Both the position numbers and the translations under genes were made by a program. A model generated the notes under the pieces. That model had not been told where the DNA came from, made no database searches, and was given only the letters and a program-made list of their open reading frames with translations. A stretch of 64,000 nt of DNA, taken from NCBI GenBank assembly GCA_041662565.1, contig JBAZSE010000002.1, positions 155,244-219,243 on the forward strand, given 5' to 3'. Shown here in pieces: positions 3,605 through 54,206 of the stretch. Source of the DNA: Patescibacteria group bacterium. GTDB taxonomy: Bacteria; Patescibacteriota; Patescibacteriia; UBA1558; UBA10009. Positions within the stretch are counted from its first letter, which is position 1, and every line of letters begins with the position of its first letter.

Positions 3605-4414
3605 CTACCAAAGAAGAGTTAACCCACATTCGGAGCCAAGATCGGTTAAGTTGCCATCCCCCCCATAGAAATCGAATTTGAAGATGTCGTCAAAATACCA
3701 GAACTTAACTGAAAAATAACGGGGATCTTTACTACGAATGGCCGAACAATGAAAATTCGCAGAGAAAGATTTTTCCAAAACATCTGGAAACATTATCGAA
3801 CTAATGGCCATCTCTAGAGGACCGGAAAGAATACAGTTTTCCGGTAAGGATTCCATCTGCTCTTGCCGAGCATTCTCGGAATAACCCTGCAAACTTCCCG
3901 GAAAATAGATTCCCACAACCGGACCATTAGAGACCTTTTCGATCAGCTGTCCGTATCGACTGTTGAGTGTAATTTCAACCTGCCCCGCCAAGTTACTCGG
4001 CTCAATTTCTGACTGCCTATAACTAGGGTCTCGTCGACAATAAGAAGCGGCTGCTACTTTTATAAACTTCTTGGTGGCCTCACCAAGGTCAGCAATATCC
4101 ATCTGCGGTATAACGAACCACAAATAAACACCTTTGAGCAAGTTTTTAATCTTCTTGTCCAGTTTAATGGTCGAAAGAAGACTATTAACACGATCTTCAA
4201 CTACGTCTGGCAAGATGTCAACTGAAAATCCGACCTCCAACAGATGGGCGAGTCGTTCTTGATAGTACGGTTTGTATTGGCTCCACCCTGACTTAACGCT
4301 TGATCTAAATAAGAAATGATTTCTGTATTCAGGATGCTCAATTACAGAATTACTTACCGCCGATTTCAAATCTTGCGGCGGGATCCGACGGCCATACTTG
4401 TCAAAGAGCTGCAT
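3605..4414 (-). CDS. Hypothetical protein (orphan, GC-elevated)
   Basis: A 269-aa ORF with an AAGGAG RBS upstream of its ATG. It has no recognisable domains and interrupts the pyrE-pyrF pair on the opposite strand. Confidence 0.45.
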   Translation of the reverse strand: MQLFDKYGRRIPPQDLKSAVSNSVIEHPEYRNHFLFRSSVKSGWSQYKPYYQERLAHLLEVGFSVDILPDVVEDRVNSLLSTIKLDKKIKNLLKGVYLWFVIPQMDIADLGEATKKFIKVAAASYCRRDPSYRQSEIEPSNLAGQVEITLNSRYGQLIEKVSNGPVVGIYFPGSLQGYSENARQEQMESLPENCILSGPLEMAISSIMFPDVLEKSFSANFHCSAIRSKDPRYFSVKFWYFDDIFKFDFYGGDGNLTDLGSECGLTLLW

Positions 4415-4665
4415 TATTTACTCCTTTTCAAATTGATTCACCTACACCCTAGGCGCGGGATTATTATTTGATTGGTAAATGCCAATGTGTACAATAATAA
4501 TATATTAATATTACAAATTCAACTTTTTGTCAAGATTGACTTTTGATCGCCTAAAACCTAAAATAAACATACAAATATGGTAAAAATTGAATTAAAGAAA
4601 AATCATTTAAATTGAAAACTATTTTAAAAGTCCTTACTACAAAGGGCTTTCTTTAAAAAAAGAAT

Positions 4666-5415
4666 ATGGATTATAAAAAAAGAGCTGAAGCTTCATCAAA
4701 TCCTATAGCTAAAACTTTATTTGAATTAATGGAGAACAAACAAACCAACTTATGCTTGGCGGCTGATTTAACCGATTGGGATGAATTGATTAAATTAATT
4801 GCCACGGTTGGCTCGGAAATATGTGTTTTAAAAACACATATTGATATTATTGAAGATTTACCACCGAACTTTGCGGATAAATTAAACGATCTAAAAGAAA
4901 AATTCAATTTTTTGATTTTTGAAGACCGCAAATTCGCCGATATCGGCAATACGGTTAAAATGCAATACGAAGCCGGTATTTATAAAATCGCCGAGTGGGC
5001 CGATATTGTTAATTGCCACATTGTGCCAGGCCCGGGGATTATTGAGGGCTTGCGTGAAGTTGGCCTGCCAAAAGGCCGCGGTTTGTTACTGCTCGCTGAA
5101 ATGAGTTCACAAGGCAATTTAGCTACCGGCGATTACACTAAAACAGCCATTGAATGGGCTAAAAAATATGATGATTTTGTGATTGGCTTTATTGGCATGA
5201 AAAAATTAATTGATGATTCTAAATTTATCACCATGACTCCGGGCGTACAATTTGCTGCCACCAGCGACAACTTAAAACAACAATATAATTCGCCGGAACA
5301 AGTAATCCAAAATGGTTCGGATATTATAATTGTCGGCCGTGGCATTTATTCTTCAGCTAACCCCCAAGCCGAAGCCCAAAAATACCGTCAAGCCGGCTGG
5401 TCAGCTTTGTTATAA
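4666..5415 (+). CDS. pyrF: Orotidine 5'-phosphate decarboxylase, eukaryote/fungal URA3-like type
   Basis: FEDRKFADIGNTVK, IAEWADI, GLLLLAEMSS.GNLATG, DFVIGFI, GSDIIIVGRG and RYR.AGW are near-identical to the yeast URA3 signature blocks as recalled. Confidence 0.85.
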   Translation: MDYKKRAEASSNPIAKTLFELMENKQTNLCLAADLTDWDELIKLIATVGSEICVLKTHIDIIEDLPPNFADKLNDLKEKFNFLIFEDRKFADIGNTVKMQYEAGIYKIAEWADIVNCHIVPGPGIIEGLREVGLPKGRGLLLLAEMSSQGNLATGDYTKTAIEWAKKYDDFVIGFIGMKKLIDDSKFITMTPGVQFAATSDNLKQQYNSPEQVIQNGSDIIIVGRGIYSSANPQAEAQKYRQAGWSALL

Positions 5416-5516
5416 CGATATAAATAAGTTTAACTAAAAACAACTCTAATTTGAGTTGTTTTTTAATGAAAAAAATAGGTCTTGCGCATCCGATTGGACA
5501 CGCAAGACCTTAGAAG

Positions 5517-6008
5517 CTATTTCGAAGTCAATTGTTTGATTCTCTTTGCCGCCTGCAGAGCGAGCGGTCGAGCATCAAAATAATTGTTGAAACCGATGCT
5601 GGTCTCCCAATTGCCATCGTAACATTTTACGGTAGCAAATCTCCATGACCAGACACCGTCCACGAGCATGAAGGCGTATTCCTCTTTGGTACCGTTATTC
5701 CGGGTAAACCTTATCACCTGGCCACCAGGAATATCGTAAGTCATCCACTGACTTTCGAATCCTTCGAAATCCTGACCTTCTTGCGTATTACTGACAGTTA
5801 CGGATTGCAACTGTCTAACGGAAAGGAGAAACTGTAACCGATCTCGATCGGCGCCTGGGAGAAACATGTTAATAGCGGCTGAATCGCCGTTCACCAACGC
5901 AGACATAGCTGTCTGCTGACGAATGAGCTGGTCATCCACATCCGGATGAACCCAATACCCAATGAGGCCACAAATGACGCAGACTGCGATGCAAAGAACT
6001 ATGCGCAT
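5517..6008 (-). CDS. Hypothetical secreted protein (signal peptide; orphan, GC-elevated)
   Basis: The N-terminus MRIVLCIAVCVICGLIGYW is hydrophobic, and the start context is AGGAGCGCATCATGCGCA. No recognisable domains. Confidence 0.45.
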   Translation of the reverse strand: MRIVLCIAVCVICGLIGYWVHPDVDDQLIRQQTAMSALVNGDSAAINMFLPGADRDRLQFLLSVRQLQSVTVSNTQEGQDFEGFESQWMTYDIPGGQVIRFTRNNGTKEEYAFMLVDGVWSWRFATVKCYDGNWETSIGFNNYFDARPLALQAAKRIKQLTSK

Positions 6009-6237: not shown

Positions 6238-8874
6238 ATGTATTTACAGAAATTAGAAATTCAGGGCTTTAAATCTTTTGCCGAAAAAACCGTTTTGGAA
6301 TTTAACCGTGATCTAACAGCCGTGGTGGGCCCAAATGGCAGCGGCAAATCCAACATTGCCGATAGTGTACGGTGGGTTTTGGGCGAACAAAGCTTAAAAC
6401 TTTTGCGCGGCAAAAAATCCCAAGATGTAATTTTTGCCGGTTCTACCAATAAAGCTCGGCTGGGTTTTGCCGAAGTGTCTTTGTTTTTGAATAATGAAGA
6501 TGGCAAAGCCCCGATTGATTACCGCGAAATTGTGATAACCAGGAGAATTTACCGCGATGGCGAAACCGAATATTTGATTAATAAAAATAAAGTTCGGCTC
6601 TTAGACGTGCAAATGCTACTTGCTAAAGCCAATTTTGGAGTACGCACTTACGCCATTATTGGCCAAGGCATGATTGATTCCATTTTAACTTCATCCCCAA
6701 CCGAACGCAAAGAATTTTTTGATGAAGCCACCGGCGTTAGGGAATACCAGCTTAAAAAAGATCAGGCCATGCTTAAGCTGGAAAGAAGCAAAGAAAATTT
6801 AACCCAAGCCGAACAGCTATTGCAAGAAATAGAGCCACGGTTGCGTTCCTTAACTCGCCAGGTTAAAAGATTGGAACGCAAAGAGGAATTAACCGCCAAA
6901 TTGCGGGAACTACAAACCGTTTATTACAGCAGGCAACTGACTGTTTTGGATGAACAGCTGGCTAACATTCAAATTCAACTTAAAAATGGCGAAAAAGACC
7001 AAGCAAATTTGGAAACTCAATTGCTTAAAGGCCAGCAGGAGCTTGATCAAGAGCAATTAAACCAAACGCAGGCCCAGGCCTTTAGCTTGCTACAAAACCA
7101 ATACCAAAATTTAAGCACCGAACGCAACCGTTTAAGCCAAGAACTTTCGTTACTTAAAGCCAAGCAGGATTTAGATTTAACCAAAGCTGGAAAAGTTGAT
7201 TTGGTTTGGCTGCAAAATCGCTTGTTGGAAATTAATAATGAACAGCAAAAATTCCTTCAAGAAGAAAACAATTGCCAACAAGAACTTTTTAAATTAGAAA
7301 AATTATTAGCCACCAAAGTTGAAACCCAAAATGGGGTTTTGGCGGAATTTGAAGAGCTGCAAAATAAATTGCTGCAAAACAGGCAAAATGGTCCGGAAAA
7401 TTCCCAAGTTACCTTAAAAAAATTCCAAGAACAATTGCGCCAATTATATCAAAAACAAGCGGCTTTTATCGGGCAAATTGAAAAAATAAGCAATCTTGAA
7501 GAGTTAAAAAACATCAAAGAACTGGCGCAGGAGTTGTTGCAAAACCTTAAGCAAATGTCTGTGGATGTTGATACTGTTGGGCAAGTTTCTTCATCAATTG
7601 ATTTTAACGAACTGCAAAAACAACTGGCTGATTTTATAAAAACCAAAGATTCTTTGGTTAATGAAATTCATGGTTTAAAAATCAAAACCGAAGTAGCCAA
7701 ACAAAAATTAATTCAAACACAAACCGAACAAATCAAACTGAAAACGGAAGAAAAAAAGATTGTTGCCGAACTTTCGACTTATCAAAACCAAGGCAAACAA
7801 ATTGATAACGCTGATTTAAAAAATCGGCAAACGGAACTGGAACAGGCCATGGCCAAAATTGACGGACAAGTTGGCGAACTAAAAATAAAATTGGAAACTT
7901 TTTCGGCCAGCCAAGAACAGGAACGGCATAAATTCATGGAACTGCAACGCGGTTTACGAGAAACGCAAAGCAAGTTAAATTTGGTTAGCGCACAACTTAA
8001 CGGTTTAAAGGTTGAGCTGGCTCGGCTGGAAACCAAAAAAGAAGATTTAGGCAACGAGATCAAAACCGAATTTATCGGAGAATTTGTATTGCAAACAAAT
8101 CCGGAACCGCTCAATTTAAATGAACTTTTGGCCGAAATTAACCGTTACAAAAATCAACTCTCCATTATCGGGGGGATTGATGAAGATGTGGCTAAAGAAT
8201 ATGCCGAAGTGAATGAACGCTACGTTTTCTTAAATGAGCAGGTTACTGATTTACAAGGAGCCATTGAATCGTGCTTACAGATTATTGAAGAATTGGACCA
8301 AAAAATTACCAGCCAGTTTGAAGTAGCTTTTGAAAAAATCAACGAAAAATTTGAACATTATTTTAAAATCCTCTTTAATGGCGGACAAGCTAAGCTGACT
8401 TTGGAAAAGAAAGTTATTACCGAGGAAGTAGTGGAGCAAGAAACTCTTGAATCCAATCCGGTTGCTAAAGCCAAACCCAAAATTGAAGACAAAAGATTAA
8501 AAACCAAAATTGAATTTGGCATTGAAATCCAAGCCACGCCTCCGGGCAAACGGCTAAAATCAATCAATACCCTTTCGGGCGGTGAAAAGGCCTTAACTTC
8601 CATTGCCCTAATTTCCGCCATTATTGCCAACAACCCTTCGCCTTTTGTAATCTTAGATGAGGTAGATGCCGCTTTAGATGAATCCAATTCCATTAGGTTT
8701 GCCAGCATTGTTAAAGAACTTTCCACTCAAGCGCAATTTATCTGTGTGACCCACAACCGCGCCACCATGCATCAGGCCGCTATTTTGTACGGCGTAACCA
8801 TGGGCGCAGATGGCATTTCCAAACTTCTCTCCATTAACTTAACGGAAGCCGAAAAAGTAGCCGAAACCAGCTAA
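6238..8874 (+). CDS. smc: SMC-like chromosome segregation ATPase (878 aa, no recognisable hinge domain)
   Basis: The N-terminus LEIQGFKSF with Walker A GPNGSGKSN, and the C-terminal signature LSGGEKALTS, Walker B ILDEVDAALD and H-loop CVTHN, are all present. The whole middle is coiled coil. Confidence 0.7.
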   Translation: MYLQKLEIQGFKSFAEKTVLEFNRDLTAVVGPNGSGKSNIADSVRWVLGEQSLKLLRGKKSQDVIFAGSTNKARLGFAEVSLFLNNEDGKAPIDYREIVITRRIYRDGETEYLINKNKVRLLDVQMLLAKANFGVRTYAIIGQGMIDSILTSSPTERKEFFDEATGVREYQLKKDQAMLKLERSKENLTQAEQLLQEIEPRLRSLTRQVKRLERKEELTAKLRELQTVYYSRQLTVLDEQLANIQIQLKNGEKDQANLETQLLKGQQELDQEQLNQTQAQAFSLLQNQYQNLSTERNRLSQELSLLKAKQDLDLTKAGKVDLVWLQNRLLEINNEQQKFLQEENNCQQELFKLEKLLATKVETQNGVLAEFEELQNKLLQNRQNGPENSQVTLKKFQEQLRQLYQKQAAFIGQIEKISNLEELKNIKELAQELLQNLKQMSVDVDTVGQVSSSIDFNELQKQLADFIKTKDSLVNEIHGLKIKTEVAKQKLIQTQTEQIKLKTEEKKIVAELSTYQNQGKQIDNADLKNRQTELEQAMAKIDGQVGELKIKLETFSASQEQERHKFMELQRGLRETQSKLNLVSAQLNGLKVELARLETKKEDLGNEIKTEFIGEFVLQTNPEPLNLNELLAEINRYKNQLSIIGGIDEDVAKEYAEVNERYVFLNEQVTDLQGAIESCLQIIEELDQKITSQFEVAFEKINEKFEHYFKILFNGGQAKLTLEKKVITEEVVEQETLESNPVAKAKPKIEDKRLKTKIEFGIEIQATPPGKRLKSINTLSGGEKALTSIALISAIIANNPSPFVILDEVDAALDESNSIRFASIVKELSTQAQFICVTHNRATMHQAAILYGVTMGADGISKLLSINLTEAEKVAETS

Positions 8875-8896
8875 GTAGGCAAGAGCAAGCGGGATC

Positions 8897-8924
8897 TTGA
8901 CAAATACCGGCTTTCCATTATAAT
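8897..8924 (+). promoter_or_regulatory. Sigma70-like promoter upstream of rpsP
   Basis: TTGACA is followed by a 16-nt spacer and TATAAT. Confidence 0.5.
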
Positions 8925-9015
8925 ACCCACTAATGCTGCAGTAGTGCTCTCGCCTTTGCCCCATGAGGGAAAAAACCAACGGCGAAAATTTATAATCATC
9001 ATTTATTAATTTACT

Positions 9016-9486
9016 ATGTTATCAATTAGATTCTCTCGCACAGGCAAGAAAAAACAGCCCTATTTTAGGGTTATTCTTACGGAAAAGCAAAAAGATCCTT
9101 GGGGCAAATATATCGAACTTTTGGGCAACTATAACCCCAGGAGCAAAGAAACCAATTTAAAAACTGACCGTATCAAATACTGGCTTTCGGTTGGCGCTCA
9201 AGCCACTACCAGCATCCATAACTTATTAGTTAAGGTAGGTGCCATAGAAGGCAAAAAGAAAAATCCGGTTAGAGTTTCTAAAGTTAGAAAAGTTAAGTTA
9301 GATGCCAAAAAGAAAGAAACTTCGGATGCTTTGGCTAAAACTGAAAAAGATGCTTTAGACGCTAAAGCCAAGGCGGAACAAGATGCCCAAGATGCTAAAG
9401 CTGCCGCAGAAGCCCCTCAAGAATCAACAGAACAAGTTTCTCCGGTTGTTGAAGAAAAAGCCGATGAACCGGTTGTTACTGCCTAA
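9016..9486 (+). CDS. rpsP: 30S ribosomal protein S16 with Lys/Ala/Asp/Glu-rich C-terminal extension
   Basis: MLSIRFSRTGKKKQPYFRV is the S16 N-terminal signature, and a roughly 70-aa low-complexity charged tail follows. Confidence 0.9.
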   Translation: MLSIRFSRTGKKKQPYFRVILTEKQKDPWGKYIELLGNYNPRSKETNLKTDRIKYWLSVGAQATTSIHNLLVKVGAIEGKKKNPVRVSKVRKVKLDAKKKETSDALAKTEKDALDAKAKAEQDAQDAKAAAEAPQESTEQVSPVVEEKADEPVVTA

Positions 9487-10140: not shown

Positions 10141-10147
10141 AAAAAAT

Positions 10148-10789
10148 ATGCAATTCAATATAATCACTATTTTCCCGCGTATCTTGGATTCTTACATTAA
10201 TGAATCCATTCTTAAACGCGCCCAAAAGGCCAAACTGATTAAGATTAATTCCCACAATCCTAGAGATTTTACGACCGATAAGCACCACCATGTTGATGAT
10301 TCTCCTTATGGCGGCGGGCCGGGCATGGTAATGATGGTTGAACCGATTGTTAAGGCCTTAAAAAAAATCAAGAAAAAAAAGAAATCATTGGTAATAATGA
10401 TGGATCCGGCCGGCGAGCAATTTAATCAAAAAATGGCTCAAAAATTTTCTAAACTGGATCAAATTATTTTTATCTGCGGCCGGTACGAAGGCATAGATGC
10501 GCGGGTAGATAAATTTATTGATGCCAAAATTTCGGTTGGTCCGTATGTTTTAAGCGGAGGCGAACTGCCGGCTGCTGTTATTGTAGAAGCTGTTTCTCGC
10601 CTACTTCCCGGCGTGCTTGGTAAATTTGAATCTACCCAATACGAAACCTTTGGTGGTGAAAAACAAGATATCGTAGAACATCCTCAATACACTAGGCCTG
10701 AAAAATTTTTAAATATGAAAGTGCCCGATGTATTATTATCCGGCAATCATGCCGAAATTGATAAATGGCGCAGAGCCAAAAAAAAATAA
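10148..10789 (+). CDS. trmD: tRNA (guanine37-N1)-methyltransferase
   Basis: MQFNIITIFPRIL, SPYGGGPGMV and CGRYEGIDARV are TrmD signatures. An alternative start is the ATG at 10136. Confidence 0.85.
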   Translation: MQFNIITIFPRILDSYINESILKRAQKAKLIKINSHNPRDFTTDKHHHVDDSPYGGGPGMVMMVEPIVKALKKIKKKKKSLVIMMDPAGEQFNQKMAQKFSKLDQIIFICGRYEGIDARVDKFIDAKISVGPYVLSGGELPAAVIVEAVSRLLPGVLGKFESTQYETFGGEKQDIVEHPQYTRPEKFLNMKVPDVLLSGNHAEIDKWRRAKKK

Positions 10790-10833
10790 ACTATTTAGTT
10801 TAATATTTTTTAACATTCGGGGTTAATACGAAA

Positions 10834-11370
10834 TTATTGAATTACTGCATAATAATTCATTCCATAAGAGCTATCGCAAGTTGGGCAACAAGTGCCATCG
10901 GTGGCCGTGGCACTCTGATTGATAGTTTCCATCTTTGCGTAAATATAAGTTTTAACAGGCGAACCGCAGCTATACTTCATAAACGCATATCCGGTAGCTG
11001 CGTTGCAGGTTCGGCCGCCCGTGGGATCGATAATTTCAGCCTTAGTATAACCGTTATCAATTAAACATTGAGACATTGATTTGGGATAAGCGCCACCAAC
11101 ATAATTAAACCAGCCATTGCCGTTACCGCTTGAACCGCACCCGCTACCCGTAGTCATCCAATTATTATTATCGTTATAATAAAAAAATAGGGCTTTCCTA
11201 ATACTGGCGATATCATGTTGGCGTTTTGTATCTCTGGCTTTGGCCCTTGCTCCAACAATACTAACCACGGCTGCCGTAGATAATAACCCAATAACAGCTA
11301 TTACCACAAGCAATTCTATCATAGTAAACCCTAAAGGACTTTGCTTTTGACTTTTAAAAACTTTACTCAT
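10834..11370 (-). CDS. Type IV pilin / pseudopilin (prepilin N-terminal cleavage-methylation domain)
   Basis: The N-terminus KQSPLGFTMIELLVVIAVIGLLS fits the G|FT(L/M)IEL class III signal, and the C-terminus is Cys-rich. Confidence 0.7.
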   Translation of the reverse strand: MSKVFKSQKQSPLGFTMIELLVVIAVIGLLSTAAVVSIVGARAKARDTKRQHDIASIRKALFFYYNDNNNWMTTGSGCGSSGNGNGWFNYVGGAYPKSMSQCLIDNGYTKAEIIDPTGGRTCNAATGYAFMKYSCGSPVKTYIYAKMETINQSATATDGTCCPTCDSSYGMNYYAVIQ

Positions 11371-11949: not shown

Positions 11950-12067
11950 TCTTTTTAAAACCTTTAATAAATGCCCTAATTAAGGCATTTTTTATTTGAC
12001 AAACATAACCATAATTGATAGTTTTACATTAATTGATCTTTCGAAAATCTTCACAATAGGAACAAAA

Positions 12068-12379
12068 ATGCCAAAATTAGGTTCTAAAGACAAAGTCTTC
12101 GATAGAGTATCGAACTACTCTATTACCGAGAGAGACATGGCTCTCGCCAGAAAAGCCGCCGGAGGTATTGTATCTGGACGTGAAATCAAACGGCTAAATA
12201 ATTGTCCTTTCTACATAGTGGGATCAATTATTTGTATCTTACTCGCAATATCTTCATTTTTTGGTGGCATCGACATGCCTCTGTTGGCCTCTATACCAAC
12301 GCTGGTAATAGGCTTATTGGTGGGGGTGCCTGCAGTGATCGACTACAGGATACTTAAGAATAAACATTCCAAAGTCTAA
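12068..12379 (+). CDS. Hypothetical small membrane protein
   Basis: Two C-terminal hydrophobic helices. The ATG at 12068 is preferred over the TTG at 11996. Confidence 0.3.
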   Translation: MPKLGSKDKVFDRVSNYSITERDMALARKAAGGIVSGREIKRLNNCPFYIVGSIICILLAISSFFGGIDMPLLASIPTLVIGLLVGVPAVIDYRILKNKHSKV

Positions 12380-12562: not shown

Positions 12563-13501
12563 ATGGAACGAAACCTAGCTTTGGAATTTGTGCGCGTAAC
12601 CGAGGCAGCAGCCATTGCGGCCGTTAAATGGATGGGCCGTGGAGAAAGAAAAGCAGCCGATGGGGCGGCAGTTGATGCCATGCGTAAAAGCTTTAGCAAA
12701 ATTGTTTTTCATGGCACCATTGTTATCGGGGAAGGTGAAAAAGATAAAGCCCCGGAACTATATATTGGCGAGGAATTAGGCACCAAAAACGGCGAAAAAA
12801 TAGATATTGCCGTTGACCCCTTGGAATGCACCGATAGCGTAGCTAACGGTGTGCCTAATGCCATTTCGGTTATCGCCACCGGCAATGAGGGCTGTTTGTT
12901 CCACGCTCCGGATATGTACATGAATAAAATCGCTTGCGGGCCAAAAGCCAAAGGCGCCATTAATTTGGATGCTTCCGTTAAAGAAAATTTAACCAAGGTG
13001 GCTAAAAAACTGGATAAAGAAATCGCCGAACTGGTAGTAATGGTTTTAAACAGGCCCCGCCACGATGATTTGATTAAAGAACTCCGCGCTTGCGGCGCCA
13101 GGGTCTGTTTAATTTCCGACGGCGATGTAGCCGGGGCCATTGCTCCCTCTTTAAGGGATTCCGGCATTGATTTATTAATGGGCATCGGTGCCAGCGCCGA
13201 AGCGGTTTTAGCCAGTACAGCCATTAAATGTTTGGGTGGAGAATTTCAGGCCAAATTTTGGCCTAAAGATGAGGCGCAAAAAGAACGTTTGCTTAAATTG
13301 GGCTACGCTGATTTAAACAAAATTTTTACTGCCGATGATCTAGCCAAGGGCGATGATTTAACCTTTACCGCTACCGGAGTAATTGACGGCCCCATGCTTA
13401 AAGGCGTACGGATTACAGCCAATCACATAATTACCCATTCCGTAGTTATGAGAGTAAAAACAGGCACAATAAGATTTTTAGAAACACACCATAGAATATA
13501 A
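12563..13501 (+). CDS. glpX: Fructose-1,6-bisphosphatase class II
   Basis: The N-terminus ALEFVRVTEAAAIAA, and full-length similarity to the GlpX family. Confidence 0.85.
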   Translation: MERNLALEFVRVTEAAAIAAVKWMGRGERKAADGAAVDAMRKSFSKIVFHGTIVIGEGEKDKAPELYIGEELGTKNGEKIDIAVDPLECTDSVANGVPNAISVIATGNEGCLFHAPDMYMNKIACGPKAKGAINLDASVKENLTKVAKKLDKEIAELVVMVLNRPRHDDLIKELRACGARVCLISDGDVAGAIAPSLRDSGIDLLMGIGASAEAVLASTAIKCLGGEFQAKFWPKDEAQKERLLKLGYADLNKIFTADDLAKGDDLTFTATGVIDGPMLKGVRITANHIITHSVVMRVKTGTIRFLETHHRI

Positions 13502-15031: not shown

Positions 15032-15336
15032 GAGATAATCCCCCGGCAAACAGCAATTGAAATCCGCTGTTTTTTGTTTCCACCTCCGCTCCCCGCACCC
15101 TGCCTAACGGCAGTGTACTAAGAGCTACGGCGGACAAGCTCTACGCAATAACATGCTACGGGCAGTAAAAAACAAAAAACAAACAGAACTTTGACAGCTG
15201 AATAAGTGATAGGAAACAATTAATTCCCAACAATTCTTTTAAGGTGGACTAATTACAGCCGTCCATCTTCCCCTTCCTACTCAAGAAAGCGCAAGTTTTC
15301 TTATCTGGAAGATCAAAAAAATAACTGCTGTATCTT

Positions 15337-16820
<1,484 letters not shown>

Positions 16821-17160
16821 CTAGGGAGTATAATCTTCTGACTAAAACATTCGTGTTGAAGTCGAAAGTAGGTCGACCTTGATGTATGGGTTTTATAACC
16901 TATATTTACAAGAGTGGGGATTAATTGCTTTCCTATTACTTTTAAGCTGTTAAAGCGGCTGGGGTAGCCAACCCTAGCCGTTTTTGTTAGAATGATATTT
17001 ATTGAAGGAGATAACTAACTTCAATATAGGTTGTAAAGTCGCAAGGCCGAAGGCCGAGCGCTAAAATTCGCCTTTGGCGAATTTTAAAAGGAAGACATTG
17101 ATTGAAGCTGGAGCGACCGAGTTTACTCGGACGCGTAAGCTGAAAGCGATTGTCTGACGT

Positions 17161-17237
17161 GGGCGATTAGCTCAGTTGGTTAGAGCGCGTCACTGATAAT
17201 GACGAGGTCAATGGTTCGAATCCATTATCGCCCACCA
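17161..17237 (+). tRNA. tRNA-Ile (GAT)
   Basis: Cloverleaf folded by hand. The acceptor is GGGCGAT/ATCGCCC, the anticodon loop CTGATAA, and a CCA end is encoded. Confidence 0.9.
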
Positions 17238-17238
17238 C

Positions 17239-17313
17239 GCCGAGGTAGCTCAGTGGTAGAGCGCATGCCTGAAGAGCATGGCGTCGGCAGTCCGATTCTG
17301 CCCCTCGGCACCA
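17239..17313 (+). tRNA. tRNA-Phe (GAA)
   Basis: The acceptor is GCCGAGG/CCTCGGC, the anticodon stem CATGC/GCATG, the loop CTGAAGA, and CCA is encoded. It occupies the position usually held by tRNA-Ala. Confidence 0.8.
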
Positions 17314-20419: not shown

Positions 20420-22255
20420 ATGAAAATATTCAACAAACTTTCAATAGCCACTTTGGCTGTTATCTTTACCCTTGGATTTTCGGGCATTATCCAAGCCGCG
20501 ACTGCAGTAAGCTTAGGCGTTGCCGATAATTTTGCCGTACTGGCCGGCAGCGGTATTGCCAATACCGGTGCCACCACCATTGTTGGAGACGTTGGCTCGT
20601 ATCCAACTTTAACCCAAACCGGATTTGGTAGCGTTACCTTAACCGGAACCAACCATGCAGGCGATGGCACAACTCAACAAGCCAAAACCGATTTAACTGC
20701 CGCCTATCTTGATGCTGCGGGCCAGGGCGGTGCCTCGGCTATTGTTGCCGATCTTGGCGGCCAAACCTTAACTGCCGGTGTTTACAACTCTGCTTCCTCA
20801 ATCGGACTAACCGGAACACTGACTTTAGATGGCGGAGGCGATGCCAACGCGATTTTCGTTTTCCAAGCCGGCTCCACTTTAACCACGGCCGCGGCCAGCC
20901 ACGTTACTTTAACCAACAGCGCCCAGGCCTGTAATGTTTTTTGGCAAGTTGGCAGTTCGGCCACTTTAGGTACAACTTCGGATTTTAAAGGCAATATTTT
21001 GGCCTTGGCTTCTATTACCGATGACGGGGGCTCTACTATTGCCGGCCGACTTTTAGCCAGAAACGCGGCTGTTACTTTAAACAATACTTCGGTTACCAAA
21101 GCTACTTGCGCGGGCGCTTTGCCAGCTACTCTTAGCGTGGTTAAAACAATAATTAATGATGATGGCGGTAGCAAAGTTGTTGCTAACTTTCCTTTGCTAG
21201 TTGGCGCAACGTCAGTTACTTCCGGCGTCACCAATACATTTGCCCTAGGCACATATGCCGTAACCGAAACCGATTTTTCCGGCTACGCCCAATCATTTTC
21301 CGGTGATTGCGATGCCAGCGGCAACGTTACTTTAGCTTCGGGTGATCATAAATTATGCGTGGTTACTAATAATGACATTGCTACACCGCCAACTTCTTCC
21401 GGCGGCGGCGGTTGGACAGCTTACGCAGTTGTTCCCCCTGTGCCTCCATTAATTGATGTTGTAAAAGTTCCTAGCCCTTTGGCTTTGCCTAACGGTCCTG
21501 GTTTAGTTGAATATACTTTTACCTTAACTAATACTGGAACAGTGCCGGTAACTTCTATAACTCTGATTGACGATACCTGTAGTCCGATTATTTTGACTTC
21601 CGGTGATACCAATGGTGATGCAAAAATGGATCTTACAGAAACTTGGACATACAAATGTTCTGCCGTGCTTGCAGCAACCCACACTAACACGGTAGTGGCT
21701 ACTGGTTGGGCTAACGGCATTAGCGCCGTAGATATTGCCAGTGCCACTGTAGTTGTCAGCTTACCCGTTATTCCACCATTAATTCATGTTACTAAAGTCC
21801 CTACCCCATTAACGCTTTTAGCAGGCGGCGGACCGGCTTTGTACCATTATACGGTTACCAATCCCGGTACCGAACCATTAAGCAATGTTTATATTACCGA
21901 TGATAAATGTACCGGATTACCCGGAAGAGTTTTTGGCCATCCCGGAGACCTTAATAGCAATAACTTGCTAGAAAGCAATGAGTCCTGGTCCTTTAACTGT
22001 CAAACTAACCTAACCCAAACCACCACCAACACAGCCACGGCCAGCGGCGAAGCCAACGGCTTAACGGCTAAGGATTACGCCGTAGCTACGGTTATTGTGG
22101 CCCCAACCGTTGTGCCAATTGTAGTTGCCCCGATTTTGCCAAAAACCGGATTTGCCCCCCAAGAGCAAAATATTTCCTTAAATTTTGTTATCTTGGGAAT
22201 TTTAGCACTCGCTTTAATCTCGGCGATTTTGGTTTTCAAAAAACACAAAGTTTAA
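20420..22255 (+). CDS. LPXTG-anchored surface protein: ice-binding-like (DUF3494) domain plus two DUF11-like repeats
   Basis: A signal peptide is followed by the DUF3494-like FAVLAGSGIANTG...VGDVGSYP region. Two repeats (VKVPSPLALPNG..., VTKVPTPLTLLAGG...) follow. The C-terminus is LPKTG, a hydrophobic helix and KKHKV. Confidence 0.7.
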   Translation: MKIFNKLSIATLAVIFTLGFSGIIQAATAVSLGVADNFAVLAGSGIANTGATTIVGDVGSYPTLTQTGFGSVTLTGTNHAGDGTTQQAKTDLTAAYLDAAGQGGASAIVADLGGQTLTAGVYNSASSIGLTGTLTLDGGGDANAIFVFQAGSTLTTAAASHVTLTNSAQACNVFWQVGSSATLGTTSDFKGNILALASITDDGGSTIAGRLLARNAAVTLNNTSVTKATCAGALPATLSVVKTIINDDGGSKVVANFPLLVGATSVTSGVTNTFALGTYAVTETDFSGYAQSFSGDCDASGNVTLASGDHKLCVVTNNDIATPPTSSGGGGWTAYAVVPPVPPLIDVVKVPSPLALPNGPGLVEYTFTLTNTGTVPVTSITLIDDTCSPIILTSGDTNGDAKMDLTETWTYKCSAVLAATHTNTVVATGWANGISAVDIASATVVVSLPVIPPLIHVTKVPTPLTLLAGGGPALYHYTVTNPGTEPLSNVYITDDKCTGLPGRVFGHPGDLNSNNLLESNESWSFNCQTNLTQTTTNTATASGEANGLTAKDYAVATVIVAPTVVPIVVAPILPKTGFAPQEQNISLNFVILGILALALISAILVFKKHKV

Positions 22256-22514: not shown

Positions 22515-23198
22515 ATGCCGATAAATATATCATCAAAAGGCACTGGGCTGATTATAACTGTGGTAAGTTTGGCTTTTTTAGCCATGATATTTTCGGGATT
22601 GGCAGCGCAAGAAATAATTTTTCCTGCTGGCTTATTTACCAAGGATCGAGGAAAAAACCAAATTCAAAACGATTTTAGGCAATTAACCAATAATTCTTTA
22701 ACTCCTGTAAAACAAAAACCTTTAGGAAATTCTGTTTTAAATCCAATAATAAGAAAATCCAATCAATTAATAATTCCCTCCATTCATGTTAATGCTATTA
22801 TTGAAAAAGTTGGACTAACTTTAAATGGAGAAATGGCTGTTCCACAAAACTTAAACAACGTTGCTTGGTATAAACTAGGTCCTAAGCCGGGAGAAATTGG
22901 CAGCGCGGTTATGGCCGGGCACTTTGGTTGGAAAAACAACCGGCCATCAACATTTAATAATTTACATAAACTGCGAGCCAGAGATAAAGTGCAATTTAAA
23001 AATGATAAAGGTGTTATAATCACTTTTGTGGTGCGGGAAAGCCGTGAATATGATCCATTATCAGACGCTTTTGAAATTTTTAACTCCAATGATAATAAAG
23101 CCCATCTTAACCTTATTACTTGCCAAGGAATCTGGGATAAAATTTCAAAAAATTACTCAAAACGACTGGTAGTATTTACGGATAAAGAAGAAAAATAG
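22515..23198 (+). CDS. Sortase (transpeptidase)
   Basis: An N-terminal TM helix, a catalytic LITC motif (NLITCQG) and a conserved His (MAGHFGW). The gene is adjacent to the LPKTG substrate. Confidence 0.65.
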   Translation: MPINISSKGTGLIITVVSLAFLAMIFSGLAAQEIIFPAGLFTKDRGKNQIQNDFRQLTNNSLTPVKQKPLGNSVLNPIIRKSNQLIIPSIHVNAIIEKVGLTLNGEMAVPQNLNNVAWYKLGPKPGEIGSAVMAGHFGWKNNRPSTFNNLHKLRARDKVQFKNDKGVIITFVVRESREYDPLSDAFEIFNSNDNKAHLNLITCQGIWDKISKNYSKRLVVFTDKEEK

Positions 23199-23968: not shown

Positions 23969-24079
23969 AAACATGATTTTAAAAAACACTTTCCAAATCA
24001 GGAAAGTGTTTTTTGGTAAAAAAAATCCTCAGTGGATTCAAAGCGAATCTTGAACCCACTGAGGTGCAGCGATTAAATG

Positions 24080-34571: not shown

Positions 34572-34793
34572 TAATAACTCCAATTGGTTGTTTGCTAACT
34601 AGCTACTCTGTAGCCATAGCCAATAAACCTCAATGTTTAAGATCTTTTGGCTATGGCTACTTAAAAATTGCCAATAAAATTAAAAGAACTATTTTAATAA
34701 ATCAAAATATCATATTATTAATCATTTGTCAAGAATATCCAAAATTACTTTTAGTATGTATAATACTATTAACTAAATAACCTATTTGCTTAA

Positions 34794-35375: not shown

Positions 35376-36404
35376 ATGGAACTTAAATTAATCAGCCAAC
35401 AAGAGTTGAATAACTTTGTTGCTACCCAGCCACACTCTCAATTACTCCAATCTTACTCTTGGGGCGAATTTAACAAAACTCTTGATCACCATCTTTGGCG
35501 CCTAGGGATTTTTAACAATGAACAAATAGTTGCTTGCGCTACGATTATTAATAATAAATTGCCTTTGCAAAAAAGCTATCTTTATTGCCCGCGCGGACCG
35601 ATTTTTAGCCAAGAACTTAATGAAGCAAAAAAAGAAACAGCTTTAAAATTAATTTTCAGCAAAACCCGCGATATTACCATTGCCACCCGCAAGAGCGAAG
35701 AAATTTTTTTCCGTTTTGAACCGATTTTTGAATTACAAAATTCAAAAATCGCCCCGAGCGAAGTCGAGGGGTCTCGATTAATCAAAACGAAATCCATTCA
35801 ACCACCTAACACTCTGATACTGGATTTAAGCCAATCGACCGAATCGCTCTTGGCCAGCTTTCATTCCAAAACCCGCTACAACATCAAATTGGCGGAAAAG
35901 CACGGACTAACCATCAGTAAACTAACGGCTGATGATTTTACCAAATGCTGGCCACTGTTCAAACAAACCAGTGAACGAGACACTTTTGGCCTGCATTCAC
36001 AAAGCTATTATCAGACCATGTTGACTACAGTGCCGGAAGTAGAACTCTGGGTTGCCAGAAACCAAAATAATGCTATAATAGCCGCAAATCTAATGAGTTT
36101 TTACGGTGATACGGTTACTTATCTGCATGGCGCCTCCGACTATCAAAATCGCAATTTGATGGCACCCTACCTCTTACACTGGACGCTGATTCAAGAAGCG
36201 CAAAGTAGGGGCTTTAAATATTATGACTGGCACGGCATTGCGCCAGAAAGCGAAACCAACCATCCCTGGGCCGGAGTAACCAGATTTAAAAAAGGTTTTG
36301 GCGGAGAACCAACAACTTACGCCGGTACTTATGATTTTATTTACGAAACTGGTTGGTACAAATTGTATAAAGTTTTCAGAAAAATAAACCGAATTATTAA
36401 ATAA
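35376..36404 (+). CDS. FemAB-family peptidoglycan interpeptide-bridge aminoacyltransferase
   Basis: The length and fold signature (LQSYSWGEF, two GNAT-like halves) fit the family. It contains an in-frame GC-rich motif. Confidence 0.65.
   Translation: MELKLISQQELNNFVATQPHSQLLQSYSWGEFNKTLDHHLWRLGIFNNEQIVACATIINNKLPLQKSYLYCPRGPIFSQELNEAKKETALKLIFSKTRDITIATRKSEEIFFRFEPIFELQNSKIAPSEVEGSRLIKTKSIQPPNTLILDLSQSTESLLASFHSKTRYNIKLAEKHGLTISKLTADDFTKCWPLFKQTSERDTFGLHSQSYYQTMLTTVPEVELWVARNQNNAIIAANLMSFYGDTVTYLHGASDYQNRNLMAPYLLHWTLIQEAQSRGFKYYDWHGIAPESETNHPWAGVTRFKKGFGGEPTTYAGTYDFIYETGWYKLYKVFRKINRIIK
35753..35778. repeat. GC-rich motif CCCGAGCGAAGTCGAGGGGTCTCGAT embedded in frame in femAB
   Basis: It matches the polA copy at 22 of 25 positions and encodes PSEVEGSRL. 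Confidence 0.6.
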
Positions 36405-38541: not shown

Positions 38542-38630
38542 ATTTAAAAATCATCAAAAAAAATTCCCGGACCAATAACTTAGGTCCGGGTTTTAGTTAC
38601 CATTGATATGGCAACTACGATTATGAAAAG

Positions 38631-39110
38631 TTACATCCTGCGGCGATCTTCGTTGCCATTATGATTGCAAGATCTGCCATCGTCCTGGCAAGTGTAATGT
38701 CCGCTTGGCGAAAACTTTTTTGTCCGACAGCATAAGGGGCAAAGCATGTAAGCTTTTTCGTAACCCCGCCGAACAACAAGCCAGTAGTAGGCCAAGCCAA
38801 TCAAGGCGATTGCTCCACTGATCATCAGCTGCTGTTCTTGATCGGGCAAGAATAGCGGCCATATTTTGCTCAAATTGAGCGTTGGTATCAGGTAGCTCAA
38901 AACCATGATGGCACAAGCCAATAGGATGTTTCTGTGGATGTTGAGAAACTTCCTAAAAAACTTATTGCCGTTCCAGGTGTTGCTGAACCACCTAGGCACA
39001 TTGACCAAGGCGGTCAACAACAAAAACAACCCGATCAATACCGGAGCATCCGAGGCCTTAGCCCAAATGGCAAATAACCCCAGAAGGCAGAAGTAAAGTA
39101 ACGTGCGCAT
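38631..39110 (-). CDS. Hypothetical membrane protein with Cys-rich C-terminus (orphan, GC-elevated)
   Basis: The start context AAGGAGCGCTTCATGCGCA resembles that of the gene at 6008. It has three or four TM helices and a CPLCC...C tail. Confidence 0.4.
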   Translation of the reverse strand: MRTLLYFCLLGLFAIWAKASDAPVLIGLFLLLTALVNVPRWFSNTWNGNKFFRKFLNIHRNILLACAIMVLSYLIPTLNLSKIWPLFLPDQEQQLMISGAIALIGLAYYWLVVRRGYEKAYMLCPLCCRTKKFSPSGHYTCQDDGRSCNHNGNEDRRRM

Positions 39111-39405
39111 GAAGCGCTCCTTAAATGGTGGACGAAAAATGAACAATTTAACCTACTCTAATACAAAACAAGCACTTTGTTAAGCCCTAAATATTTACAA
39201 ATAGCTAAAATAATGTTGTAATATAGCATTACTGTGGATAACTTCTTAATAACCCTCTTTTTTTGAAGGCAATTTTCCGCTAGATTCAGCGGTAAATTCT
39301 GTTTTTTAATTTCAAAATTTGACAAATTTTTTTTATCTATATAATGCGTTTTTCGCTAACTTTAGCACTAAAAAGGATAAAATGGTGCAATGCACTCGCT
39401 TTATC

Positions 39406-48071: not shown

Positions 48072-48225
48072 AGTTGACCTCCCCGCTCCGCTGTTATCTC
48101 AATAGATGACAGTTGGGGCGGGGATCTTTTTTTTAAATTTGACAATATTTTTGGTTATGTTATTATCAAATCAAACGAGAGCGGCGACAAATCCCCGTAG
48201 GGAAAGGCCTGATAAATAATCAGAT

Positions 48226-48783
48226 CTAGCCGAAATTCTGACCACCCCTAATTAGGGTGGTTATTTTATTTCTCGCCATTTCATACAACTGCTGTGCTTC
48301 TTTTTTTAAAGGTTCTTCGTAATAAGCCCTGATTAAACCAGCAAATAAATCTGCCACTCTCAAACCCGGAAATGACAGATCATTAGCTGTTTTAACTTTT
48401 TTTACTAGCATACCATTCTTGCGAAAAAACTGTTTCAACAACAAATGATAACGTCTGGACTTTTTGCCATCAATTATTATTTGTTTAATTTTTTCGTTAG
48501 CCACAAGATTGATAACAGCTTTATGGAAATCCATTTCAATAAATGGATTACGCAATAACGCGGCTTTGACTAAAAAATCTTCACCAGACAATCTTTCTAG
48601 AAATAATTTTCTAATTTTCCAAATTTGTTTATTCCAATGGAATGCATCAATGCGCAAAAACTTCTCTGTTTCTACAATAGCATTGTTCAATTTATCTAAA
48701 TTTTCTACCTCAATATAAACCAAAGCAACAGCTGATTTACCTGAAGGTTTATGGATTCCTGATTCATCAATGAAAATATACAT
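48226..48783 (-). CDS. DUF3800-family protein
   Basis: The N-terminus MYIFIDESG is characteristic of DUF3800. Confidence 0.5.
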   Translation of the reverse strand: MYIFIDESGIHKPSGKSAVALVYIEVENLDKLNNAIVETEKFLRIDAFHWNKQIWKIRKLFLERLSGEDFLVKAALLRNPFIEMDFHKAVINLVANEKIKQIIIDGKKSRRYHLLLKQFFRKNGMLVKKVKTANDLSFPGLRVADLFAGLIRAYYEEPLKKEAQQLYEMARNKITTLIRGGQNFG

Positions 48784-52117: not shown

Positions 52118-53173
52118 ATGCCAAAAGAAAAAAAAGAGAAAGAAAGCGAGGAGGAACAAAGGTATCCTTCCCGGGCCGACCAAACTACGGCCGAAAAATC
52201 AACCGCCGCTACTCAGGCGATTGACCAAATCCGCTCGCGTTTTGGCGAGGGTTCAATTATGAAGCTGGGCGAAGCCAAGCAAATGCAGGTAGAAGCCATT
52301 CCTACCGGCTGTTTATCGCTGGATATCGCACTTGGCGTGGGCGGGGTGCCCAGGGGCAGGATTATTGAAATCTACGGGCCAGAGGCCTCGGGTAAAACAA
52401 CTCTAACCCAGCACATTATTGCCGAAGTCCAAAAACTGGGTGGCACAGCGGCGTTTATTGATGCCGAACATGCCTTGGATCCGGAATACGCCAAAAAAAT
52501 CGGCGTTAAAATAGATGATTTGTTAATTGCCCAGCCCGATACCGGCGAACAAGCCTTGGAAATTGCCGAAACTTTGGTTAGATCCAATGCCGTTGATGTG
52601 GTGGTAATTGACTCTGTGGCGGCTCTTGTTCCTAAGGCGGAAATTGAAGGCGACATGGGCGATTCGCACATGGGCTTGCAAGCTCGGCTAATGAGCCAGG
52701 CCTTGCGCAAGCTTTCGGGTATTGTTTCCAAAACCAATACCGTGGTTATTTTCATTAACCAGATTAGAATGAAAATCGGCGTCTTTTTCGGCAACCCGGA
52801 AACAACCACCGGTGGCATGGCCTTAAAATTCTACTCTTCAGTTCGAATTGAAGTGCGTAGAGCCGCGCAAATTAAAAAAGGCGAAGAAATAATCGGCAAC
52901 CGAGTTAACTGCAAAGTAGTTAAAAACAAAGTCGCCGCGCCGTTTAAGAGCACCCAGTTTGATATTATGTATAACGAAGGCATCAGCGTTTCGGGTGATA
53001 CTTTGGATACCGGCATTCAGTTTGGCATTATAGAAAAATCCGGCAACACCCACTCGTTTGGTGAAATCAAATTAGGCGTTGGCCGCGAAACCGCCAAAGA
53101 ATTCTTAAGAGATAACCCCAAGCTAATCAAGGAAATTAAAAAGAAGGTTTGGGAAAAGGTAAAAACCAGTTAA
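52118..53173 (+). CDS. recA: Recombinase RecA
   Basis: [28 protein letters not shown] and the L1/L2 loops. Confidence 0.95.
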
Positions 53174-53218
53174 AATGATTTGCGTAAAAATTTAGATATC
53201 GCTATTAAAAGCGAACGT

Positions 53219-53246
53219 AGGGGCTGGTTTAAAACCAGCCCTTTTG
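53219..53246 (+). terminator. Intrinsic terminator of recA
   Basis: GGGGCTGGTTTAAAACCAGCCC followed by TTTT. Confidence 0.6.
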
Positions 53247-53321
53247 TGAAATTTATTTTATTTACAAAATAAAAAATTCCCCGCTCCAAGGTTTGCCAAG
53301 AAGCGGGGTTTTGAAATATAT

Positions 53322-54206
53322 TTACCAGGAGAAGGTAAGGCCTAAACCTTGCGGGGTTGGGCCAACCGAATAGCTGGGAGTACAGACAGCACTGTTCGGA
53401 AAGAACAGCACTTCATATACAATAACTCCAGTGAGAGATAAGGCGCCAACCCCGATATCACCATCACGGAATCCGTTCGCGCCCCAAAACGGAACATCGC
53501 CTGAGCGCAAATAGCCGTTCATTTCCTCCCAGGCAACCAGCGTGGCAGTAATGCCCAACACCCTCCAGCCCAGATGCATATAAGGCCTAAGATGAGCGTT
53601 CATCCACCAAGGCCCGATAAAGGAAACCTCCCCGTTAAAATCAGAGAGGACGTGTTGAACCCCGCCTTGTTTGCCAGGAATTTTTACCCACTCGCCGGAG
53701 TGATTTGGAAAGGCCTCGCCTTCAACAAGAAAATTGTAAGACATGCACAAACCAACCCAGCTGACTCCGATTACGACGGCGGTTTCCACTTTAGGCCACA
53801 ATTCTTTTAGGGGCCTAGCGCAGTATATGCCGTTTCTAATCGTTGGATCTTCCGGAAACCATAAGGTCCAGCCAATCCCAACGCAATCAGCGCCCAGATC
53901 CCACCAGCTCCAGCCGTCGCCTCCGGCCATGCCATGAGTTTCCCATGGATAATAAGCATCTTTGACTTCATTTAAGATGCCAACACCCAAAGAAATACCG
54001 GCACCTGCCCACTTGTTTTTGAGAATGTCTGTCCATTCTCGGGCTAACCACGAATAGAACAAAGCGTGGGTAAGTTTGTCGGTGGTGCGCCAGTCATCCT
54101 GAGCCCACCTAAACTTGCCGGTTTCCGGCTTTAAGCCAAGATCGCCGGCTTGGCCAAGATTAGTGCAAAAGAGCACCAACACCACAAGTACCATTATCCT
54201 TCTCAT
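53322..54206 (-). CDS. Hypothetical Trp-rich secreted protein (orphan, about 55% GC)
   Basis: The signal peptide is MRRIMVLVVLVLF and the protein has 20 or more Trp residues. A GC hairpin with T-run terminator lies at 53279-53308. Confidence 0.45.
   Translation of the reverse strand: MRRIMVLVVLVLFCTNLGQAGDLGLKPETGKFRWAQDDWRTTDKLTHALFYSWLAREWTDILKNKWAGAGISLGVGILNEVKDAYYPWETHGMAGGDGWSWWDLGADCVGIGWTLWFPEDPTIRNGIYCARPLKELWPKVETAVVIGVSWVGLCMSYNFLVEGEAFPNHSGEWVKIPGKQGGVQHVLSDFNGEVSFIGPWWMNAHLRPYMHLGWRVLGITATLVAWEEMNGYLRSGDVPFWGANGFRDGDIGVGALSLTGVIVYEVLFFPNSAVCTPSYSVGPTPQGLGLTFSW

Follow-up and report, generated by a model that had tools for sequence, protein, structure and literature searches.

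Reverse-strand accessory genes at operon boundaries in a 64-kb stretch of a patescibacterial genome: a mixed set of families, probably for the most part acquired horizontally

The DNA considered here is a stretch of 64 kb, called the window below, with a G+C content (GC) of 40.1%; it is part of an 809-kb metagenome-assembled genome of the Patescibacteria (Candidate Phyla Radiation, CPR). The window contains 53 sizeable open reading frames (ORFs), 42 of which lie on the plus strand, besides one 16S rRNA gene and six tRNA genes. An earlier note on this DNA had drawn attention to six ORFs of the minus strand and had regarded them as foreign single genes without known relatives, inserted between plus-strand housekeeping genes. 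All six were found at the positions given there, and they are referred to as orphans 1 to 6:

3605–4414, minus strand: orphan 1, a soluble protein of 269 aa, between a pyrE-like phosphoribosyltransferase gene and pyrF
5517–6008, minus strand: orphan 2, 163 aa, with an N-terminal transmembrane (TM) anchor (hydrophobic residues 1–24), between pyrF and smc
24080–24808, minus strand: orphan 3, a soluble protein of 242 aa, by the tRNA-Cys gene
34083–34571, minus strand: orphan 4, 162 aa, between uvrB and ruvA
38631–39110, minus strand: orphan 5, 159 aa, with at least three TM segments and a cysteine-rich C-terminal tail, between a Mur ligase gene and rpoB
53322–54206, minus strand: orphan 6, 294 aa, rich in tryptophan and glycine, with a signal peptide and two hydrophobic segments, between recA and a wzx-like gene

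The closest relatives of the PyrF protein are labelled Candidatus Komeilibacteria, and the genome is therefore regarded as Komeilibacteria-like. RecA, PyrF and RuvA of this genome are each singletons when clustered at 90% identity; the lineage is thus thinly sampled, and the lack of a close homologue says little when taken alone.

The flanking genes are those which had been named before. The supposed opposite orientation to the neighbours did not hold throughout, since uvrB, too, lies on the minus strand, where orphan 4 is co-oriented with it and divergent from ruvA, and since orphan 3 follows the tRNA-Cys gene on the same strand. (The gene at 35376–36404 belongs to the FemAB family and is not ruvB.) Signal or anchor sequences or TM segments are present in three of the proteins, as had been predicted, namely in orphans 2, 5 and 6. 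A ribosome-binding site (RBS) of the GGAG type is located 6–9 nt ahead of the ATG codon in all six ORFs; it is AGGAG-like, as had been claimed for all, in four of them and reads GGAG only in the other two. Directly downstream of five of the six ORFs, a hairpin rich in G+C precedes a T-run; orphan 4, for which a terminator had also been claimed, is followed by hairpins, but a T-run was not found. The signals which could be placed are the following:

3554–3579, both strands: terminator of orphan 1 and of the convergent pyrE-like gene, with a stem of 10–11 bp and T-runs on both strands
5436–5464, plus strand: terminator belonging to pyrF itself
5477–5510, minus strand: intrinsic terminator of orphan 2, with a 15-bp stem containing eight GC pairs, then a T7 run
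24027–24064: terminator of orphan 3
38566–38590: terminator of orphan 5
53279–53308: terminator of orphan 6
54278–54250: promoter-like sequence TTGACA-N17-TAAATT of orphan 6

Each ORF has on its right a plus-strand gene with a promoter-like motif of its own (TTGTCA-N17-TAnAAT) and on its left a gene with a terminator; the six ORFs therefore lie exactly at operon boundaries.

GC values of orphans 1 to 6 are 43.2, 48.0, 40.5, 49.7, 47.5 and 51.1%, respectively, compared to a gene mean of 39.8% (standard deviation 4.6) across the window; the range of 45–57%, which had been estimated by eye, was overstated. With slightly longer ORF calls, values of 49.1% for orphan 4 (34083–34583) and 47.1% for orphan 5 (38631–39146) are obtained. 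Orphans 6, 4, 2 and 5 occupy ranks 1 to 4 among the 53 genes, and the GC at third codon positions (GC3) of orphan 5, 0.61, is the maximum of the window. Orphan 1 is only modestly elevated (rank 11), yet exceeds its 1-kb flanks (about 35%) by about 8 points; orphan 3 (rank 23) shows no elevation. Taken together, the six are set apart from the 47 remaining genes by GC (Mann-Whitney test, p = 0.0002) and by GC3 (p = 0.007). The rise in GC is even along each gene body and its edges are sharp. Nine plus-strand ORFs which likewise have no Pfam domain are GC-poor (mean 36.4%); high GC is thus no general trait of hypothetical genes in this DNA.

Codon fit was expressed as the likelihood of each gene under the codon usage of the window, with a null distribution obtained by simulation, and was not used for choosing the genes. 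All six were among the nine most atypical genes, with z values from −8.4 to −2.9 (orphans 1 to 5: −8.4, −6.5, −5.9, −6.9 and −4.0); the annotated genes all had values above −2.3. There is a mild strand asymmetry at third positions, plus-strand genes having more C than G and annotated minus-strand genes more G than C, and therefore the test was repeated with a reference of minus-strand genes only. The six then scored from −5.8 to −10.2 (orphans 1 to 5: −9.4, −7.2, −6.3, −10.2 and −6.4), whereas annotated minus-strand controls, each left out of its own reference, scored from −0.8 to −2.0. A strand artefact is excluded by this result. Atypical genes are concentrated on the minus strand, which carries 6 of the 10 atypical versus 5 of the 43 typical genes (Fisher test, p = 0.003). 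With the amino acids controlled, a GC3 excess with z values of 2.3–4.5 remained in orphans 2, 4, 5 and 6, which is not above that of recA, rpoB and rpoC. The codons concerned are different ones: the native expressed genes prefer GCC, GGC, CGC, TCC and ACC, whereas the orphans are enriched in AAG, CAG, CTC, GTC and TTC and depleted in TTA, CAA and AAA. The codon shift of the orphans is uncorrelated with that of recA, rpoBC and polA (r = 0.12; among codons ending in G or C, r = −0.27), and bias due to high expression was therefore rejected as the cause. The codon usage of all six genes is non-native when amino acids and strand are controlled; thus the deviation in GC, GC3 and codon usage which the earlier note had proposed to look for exists for the group.

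None of the six ORFs gave a match to Pfam, NCBIfam, PHROG or PADLOC, in agreement with the prediction that recognisable domains are lacking; membership in a prophage, a defence system or a named family was excluded on these grounds. Rfam scans at gathering and at permissive thresholds were without a match, and hidden structured RNAs were likewise excluded. Their description as orphans proved wrong for three of the proteins. An exhaustive HMMER search with a chimeric query of orphans 1 to 5 yielded 2696 matches at E ≤ 0.001, of which the best 150 were examined. These included 73 homologues of orphan 1 and 73 of orphan 4, with identities of 28–45% overall, so that each of the two has at least 73 homologues (28–41% identity for orphan 1 and 35–42% for orphan 4); orphans 2, 3 and 5 were represented among the 150 by self-matches only. 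For orphan 6, five homologues were obtained, with 48–60% identity. Models by AlphaFold2 (AF2) were confident for orphan 1 (predicted local distance difference test score, pLDDT, 87) and orphan 4 (pLDDT 95.5), and for neither was there a significant structural neighbour, apart from weak matches of orphan 4 to C-type-lectin-like structures in the PDB. Neither a Pfam model nor a solved relative was found for the orphan-1 and orphan-4 families, and no phage record matched orphan 1 or 4. A common origin of the families of orphans 1, 4 and 6 was excluded by hhalign; they are mutually unrelated. The amino-acid composition of the orphan-1 and orphan-4 family members ranges from that of AT-rich to that of GC-rich hosts, and a donor cannot be named for this reason.

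The junction between pyrE and pyrF, which holds orphan 1, was compared with five loci, designated L091 to L095, whose PyrF proteins are 72–83% identical to that of the window. Locus L094 has no reverse gene there nor between pyrF and smc; its pyrE–pyrF gap measures 149 nt, and a plus-strand ORF of 62 aa lies between pyrF and smc. L095 contains only an MNT/HepT toxin-antitoxin (TA) pair between pyrE and pyrF, and L092 a GC-rich reverse gene of 245 aa together with DUF7387 and MNT/HepT. L091 possesses a truncated reverse transcriptase (RT) gene, bAvd, a GC-rich reverse gene of 192 aa, DUF7387 and HicA; L093 has RT, bAvd, a reverse gene of 304 aa and MNT/HepT. The reverse genes of L091, L092 and L093 have a GC of 53–55%, compared to about 44% for their neighbours, and the accompanying TA and retroelement genes are GC-poor. 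Only the gene of L093 (8275–9189) is homologous to orphan 1, which it resembles in slot and strand, with 40% identity over 260 aa (E = 1e-48). It is no closer to orphan 1 than family members from unrelated genomes are (39–40%), although the flanking PyrE and PyrF proteins of L093 and the window are 75–80% identical.

In L093, a template repeat (TR) of 126 nt at 7740–7865, just downstream of bAvd, is 89% identical to a variable repeat (VR) at 8272–8397, which forms the 3' end of the orphan-1 homologue and comprises its C-terminal 41 codons or so. L091 has a TR of 124 nt (882–1005) and a VR at 1320–1443, which is the 3' end of the 192-aa gene. In each of the two loci, all 14 mismatches between TR and VR are at template adenines, with none at the 93–95 other positions, and 21 of the 28 mismatches in both taken together are changes from A to G. 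Mismatches restricted to adenines are the defining signature of diversity-generating retroelements (DGRs); their occurrence in the L093 homologue makes the orphan-1 family a family of DGR variable proteins. The two VR-bearing genes are unrelated to each other, but both are GC-rich, on the reverse strand and in the same slot between pyrE and pyrF. CPR genomes are enriched in DGRs, remote targets are known, and the targets of a CPR-restricted clade have no known domains (Roux et al. 2021, PMC8144416). The DGR RT of L093 (6241–7123, minus strand) is divided between two reading frames, the break being at a (GA)n tract which encodes ERERERER, and that of L091 is truncated to 108 aa; these could be pseudogenes, assembly errors or cases of slippage-prone phase variation.

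No such element was detected around orphan 1 itself. The best non-self match of 90 nt within the 64-kb window was 50% identical, which is the level of chance, and thus a TR was not found; RVT_1 and bAvd gave zero matches among the ORFs of the window, and tblastn with the RT and Avd proteins of L091 and L093 gave chance matches only. The C-terminal scaffold of orphan 1 is diverged, ending in ECGLTLLW instead of SGGLLLLG as in the family consensus. Nearby TR/VR pairs were also not found with orphan-1 family members in L008 and L099, nor with members of the orphan-1 and orphan-4 families in L010, L097 and L098. From these sequence comparisons, orphan 1 is read as a stand-alone, divergent member of a DGR target family, which would have lost its DGR or else be served by one at another site of the genome, and the junction between pyrE and pyrF as a hot spot that has held DGR and TA islets of varying completeness.

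Another member of the orphan-1 family, at 8001–8927 of locus L099, has a GC of 62% (GC3 78%); it stands by itself on the reverse strand, with a PGI-like gene and uvrC (42–43% GC) on either side, in a neighbourhood of 36–46% GC. A cluster-mate at ≥ 90% identity is labelled Gemmatimonadaceae, and the contig under that label carries MDP1891432.1; this points to a recent transfer from a donor of high GC, or else to a binning error. L099 contains, in addition, a reversed ORF of 88 aa with 53% GC (10682–10948) and GC-rich repeats resembling repetitive extragenic palindromes at 6662–6761, 9103–9206 and 13137–13223.

Relatives of orphan 4 were encountered on plasmids of Bradyrhizobium and Bacillus, as small stand-alone genes situated a few hundred bases from IS110 transposases, and on two IMG/VR contigs with a GC of 60%; in another CPR-like genome, the family occurs as tandem duplicated domains. 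In L100 (4196–6504) and L101 (2331–6519), from a Bacillus and a Bradyrhizobium plasmid, respectively, the family gene is downstream of the IS110-family transposase; the Bacillus relative, of 176 aa, is annotated as a helicase, apparently by mistake. Orphan 4 belongs to a widespread, uncharacterised family of small proteins which travels on plasmids and viral contigs.

The only relative seen for orphan 2 is a gene of 162 aa in L093 (10846–11334), with the same slot between pyrF and smc, strand and length; the two proteins are collinear, with 24% identity and a pairwise E value of 8e-7. L091, L092 and L095 have no gene in this slot. Orphan 2 is read as a membrane-anchored protein which diverges fast. 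As to orphan 5, the Mur ligase gene and rpoB are adjacent, with an empty slot, in L034 and L012 (RpoB 68–70% identical), and in L011 the same position is taken by a plus-strand H+-PPase-like gene. NCBI and JGI disagree about the length of orphan 5, NCBI annotating the last 80 aa only. Relatives of orphan 3 on plasmids or in viruses were not found; orphans 3 and 5 appear to be confined to this lineage. A tRNA-linked island at orphan 3 would consist of one gene, and was accompanied only by an AT-rich direct repeat of 12 nt outside the tRNA, with no integrase found. Between tRNA-Cys and an isochorismatase gene there is a 62-nt direct repeat (25179–25240 and 25269–25330, 98% identical, spacing 90 nt) with a predicted RNA fold of z = −4.2 and no Rfam match; except for this unrelated pair, no repeat families were found in the window.

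Orphan 6 is different. Its homologues in L003, L005 and L007 are the most GC-rich genes of their loci (54–55%), and the proteins are 59–61% identical to orphan 6, compared to 82–92% for RecA and 64–75% for Wzx. The family has 97 invariant columns and a ratio of nonsynonymous to synonymous substitution rates (dN/dS) of about 0.07–0.14, which means that orphan 6 is under purifying selection. This envelope protein is fixed in the clade, which is of genus rank, and its gene is at best an old acquisition.

We consider the six ORFs to be real, separately transcribed accessory genes at operon boundaries, most of which were probably acquired horizontally at different times; to this reading as a whole we give a probability of about 0.6. 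Their reality as genes is supported by the RBSs and terminators, by the confidently modelled families of orphans 1 and 4 and by the purifying selection on orphan 6, and ORFs of this length are unlikely to arise by chance at 40–51% GC, judging from stop-codon frequencies. Foreign acquisition, as proposed at the outset, is favoured by the codon usage and by the distribution of the orphan-1 and orphan-4 families over distant phyla, plasmids and viral contigs, and the occupancy of the slots of orphans 1, 2 and 5 is variable. The six are a mixed set of families and ages and not one system. The chromosome is streamlined and strongly co-oriented, and each ORF fills the space between a terminator and the promoter which follows; a promoter can be recognised for some of the six. 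Orphan 6 would have arrived earliest. Reverse placement at such junctions may persist because a convergent or divergent layout would share terminators or promoter regions and leave the flanking operons undisturbed.

Several results weigh against horizontal acquisition. The slot between recA and the wzx-like gene holds an orphan-6 homologue in the same reverse orientation in L003, L005 and L007, that is, the same gene at the same position in relatives, which the earlier note had itself given as evidence to the contrary; synteny and constraint of orphan 6 fit a native gene equally well. The comparison of slots was made at shallow depth for orphans 1, 2 and 6 and at a deep scale only for orphan 5. 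Part of the GC excess is given by amino-acid composition, orphans 4 and 6 being rich in glycine, alanine, arginine and proline, and family members are intrinsically richer in these residues; the codon reference consisted of 64 kb of an 809-kb genome, in which a second native codon class is possible. No donor lineage was identified, and the best 150 matches extend to about E = 4e-18, so that any weaker homologues of orphans 2, 3 and 5 would rank below them. Also, no target-site duplications, terminal inverted repeats or shared cassette ends flank the six, there are no integrase domains among the ORFs of the window and no phage genes around the six, and remnants of RT, Avd, TR or TA were absent from the 64 kb. 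Similarly, neither attC-like sites at the six boundaries nor an integron integrase in the window were found, and the boundaries have no k-mers of more than 12 nt in common besides AT-rich or promoter motifs. The single-gene cassettes of the earlier note, whether integron-like or transposon-like, were therefore rejected.

It could be argued that the six genes are native and vertically inherited, encoding fast-evolving envelope or ligand-binding proteins, that their odd composition stems from their amino acids and from weak or different codon selection, and that empty slots represent losses. This is a doubtful explanation for the whole set, if not a far-fetched one, and has most to be said for it in the case of orphan 6. 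Orphan 6, syntenic in three relatives, diverges about as wzx does and has a dN/dS of about 0.1; orphan 2 has its collinear positional orthologue at 24% identity; enrichment in glycine, alanine, arginine and proline accounts for part of the GC at first and second codon positions; and insertion scars were not found at the six boundaries. However, synonymous usage is atypical even with amino acids and strand controlled, and the GC-poor plus-strand ORFs without domains indicate that being lineage-specific does not by itself produce high GC. Orphan 1 is as near to members in unrelated genomes as to its same-slot homologue, in spite of the well-conserved flanks, and orphan-4 relatives are on plasmids of Bacillota and Alphaproteobacteria. 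That orphans 2, 3 and 5 are non-coding, the ORFs having arisen by chance in DNA which is richer in GC and is either non-coding or encodes RNA, is very unlikely. Their missing homologues among the matches listed, their atypical codon usage and the discrepant annotations of orphan 5 would agree with it, but strong RBSs at the right spacing and own terminators would not, nor would the coherent TM or signal features of orphans 2 and 5, the positional orthologue of orphan 2 or the absence of Rfam matches; moreover, ORFs of 159–242 codons are very improbable by chance at 40–48% GC. The suggestion that the genes were taken from a higher-GC host or partner of an episymbiont agrees with the direction of the GC and codon shift and with the gene in L099, which looks freshly imported from a high-GC donor; it is nevertheless highly improbable, since, among the matches listed, even the nearest relatives of orphans 1 and 4 reach no more than about 40% identity and stem from AT-rich and GC-rich organisms alike, and orphan 6 is confined to its own lineage.

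Several or all of the six may instead be DGR targets, either remote, with the DGR at another site of the 809 kb, or orphaned, their common GC-rich, adenine-poor and reverse appearance being the signature of a class. The orphan-1 family is a proven target in L093 and so is the unrelated gene of L091 in the same slot; orphan 4 has its weak C-type-lectin-like fold matches, and CPR genomes are rich in DGRs, with remote targets known (PMC8144416). Furthermore, nearly all of the GC excess of the reverse genes and proven targets is due to loss of adenine on the sense strand, with thymine kept, and at third positions adenine depletion with retained thymine is common to the proven targets, L092_u245 and orphans 2, 5 and 6. 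This asymmetry is most simply explained by a rise in GC3 together with a strand flip, and was set aside as a DGR footprint for that reason. Against such a class also speak the absence of TR, RT and Avd from the window, where no orphan sequence is repeated above chance, the diverged scaffold of orphan 1, the missing TR/VR pairs near the family members in L008, L099, L010, L097 and L098, and the lack of relationship between the families of orphans 1, 4 and 6; we regard it as quite unlikely. Perhaps junctions such as that between pyrE and pyrF are exchange sites for DGR cassettes with unrelated variable-protein genes, the six being largely surviving targets, orphaned or remote, a notion which we also think unlikely. 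If true, the six would encode ligand-binding or envelope proteins and form a class to be recognised by its composition, and the loss of adenine from the sense strand would be a trace of earlier adenine-directed mutagenesis or of a selection linked to it.

Horizontal acquisition of most of the six requires no new mechanism; the known biology of hot spots of horizontal gene transfer (HGT), CPR DGRs and moron-like units applies. The "morons" of phages, as Hendrix and colleagues are said to have described them, are lone genes of deviant GC which carry a promoter and a terminator of their own and are inserted between conserved genes. The six likewise are one gene each, with own expression signals and deviant composition, between conserved syntenic genes; unlike morons, they are in a cellular chromosome among housekeeping operons, without a prophage or PHROG matches. 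Chromosomal HGT hot spots, or flexible islets between core genes, have reportedly been treated by Oliveira et al. in 2017. The accessory content between pyrE and pyrF, with TA modules and a retroelement, differs correspondingly from relative to relative while core synteny is otherwise kept; here, however, the islets are single genes, and there is no mobility gene in the window. A CPR-restricted DGR clade was reportedly recognised by Paul et al. in 2017. Orphan 1 is homologous to a VR-bearing gene, has no recognisable domain or TM segment, as is the case with other CPR targets, and occupies the slot of sister DGR cassettes; it differs in that RT, Avd and TR are all missing from the 64 kb and in its diverged C-terminal scaffold, and the DGR link has been demonstrated for the orphan-1 family only and not for the other five ORFs. 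Integron cassettes are usually promoterless, co-oriented, arrayed by an integrase and bounded by attC sites. The six resemble them as single-gene units of foreign-looking composition, but the promoterless array, the integrase and the attC features are all absent.

Three further ORFs of the window without domains, all on the plus strand, have a deviating codon usage:

31440–31763, plus strand: mirror-image ORF of 107 aa without a Pfam match, between a minus-strand truB fusion and uvrB; GC3 0.546, codon-fit z −6.0
11996–12379, plus strand: z −7.1
2218–2871, plus strand: z −3.1, GC-poor (31%)

The slot of the last-mentioned ORF contains pyrD and pyrK in L093 and L094 and nothing in L092 and L095. 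The truB fusion (30201–31379, minus strand) is a single ORF in which a cytidylyltransferase-like domain, similar to the N-terminal part of FAD synthetases, is joined to the TruB pseudouridine synthase. At 15335–17313 the 16S rRNA gene is followed by tRNA-Ile and tRNA-Phe and by a TerC gene; a 23S rRNA gene was not found in the 64 kb, and hence the rRNA operon is unlinked. An ice-binding-like surface protein of 611 aa with an LPXTG anchor motif (20420–22255, plus strand; GC 47%) is encoded next to a sortase (22515–23198, plus strand), a pair, here in a CPR genome, of the type in which a surface protein is anchored to the cell wall. At 48172–48243 on the plus strand, an RNA motif, DUF3800-II (Rfam RF02961, 50.2 bits), overlaps the start of a DUF3800 gene (48226–48783, minus strand); in L095, DUF3800 is also present as a lone reverse gene.

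CPR genomes are tiny and highly syntenic, and the differences between close relatives are likely to include genes for host attachment and defence. Within this window, variation is located at operon junctions, in the form of single self-contained genes, and one junction is a recurrent home of diversity-generating retroelements and toxin-antitoxin modules. Targets for study are provided by two large, confidently folded and unannotated families, those of orphans 1 and 4, and by a lineage-conserved tryptophan-rich envelope protein, orphan 6.

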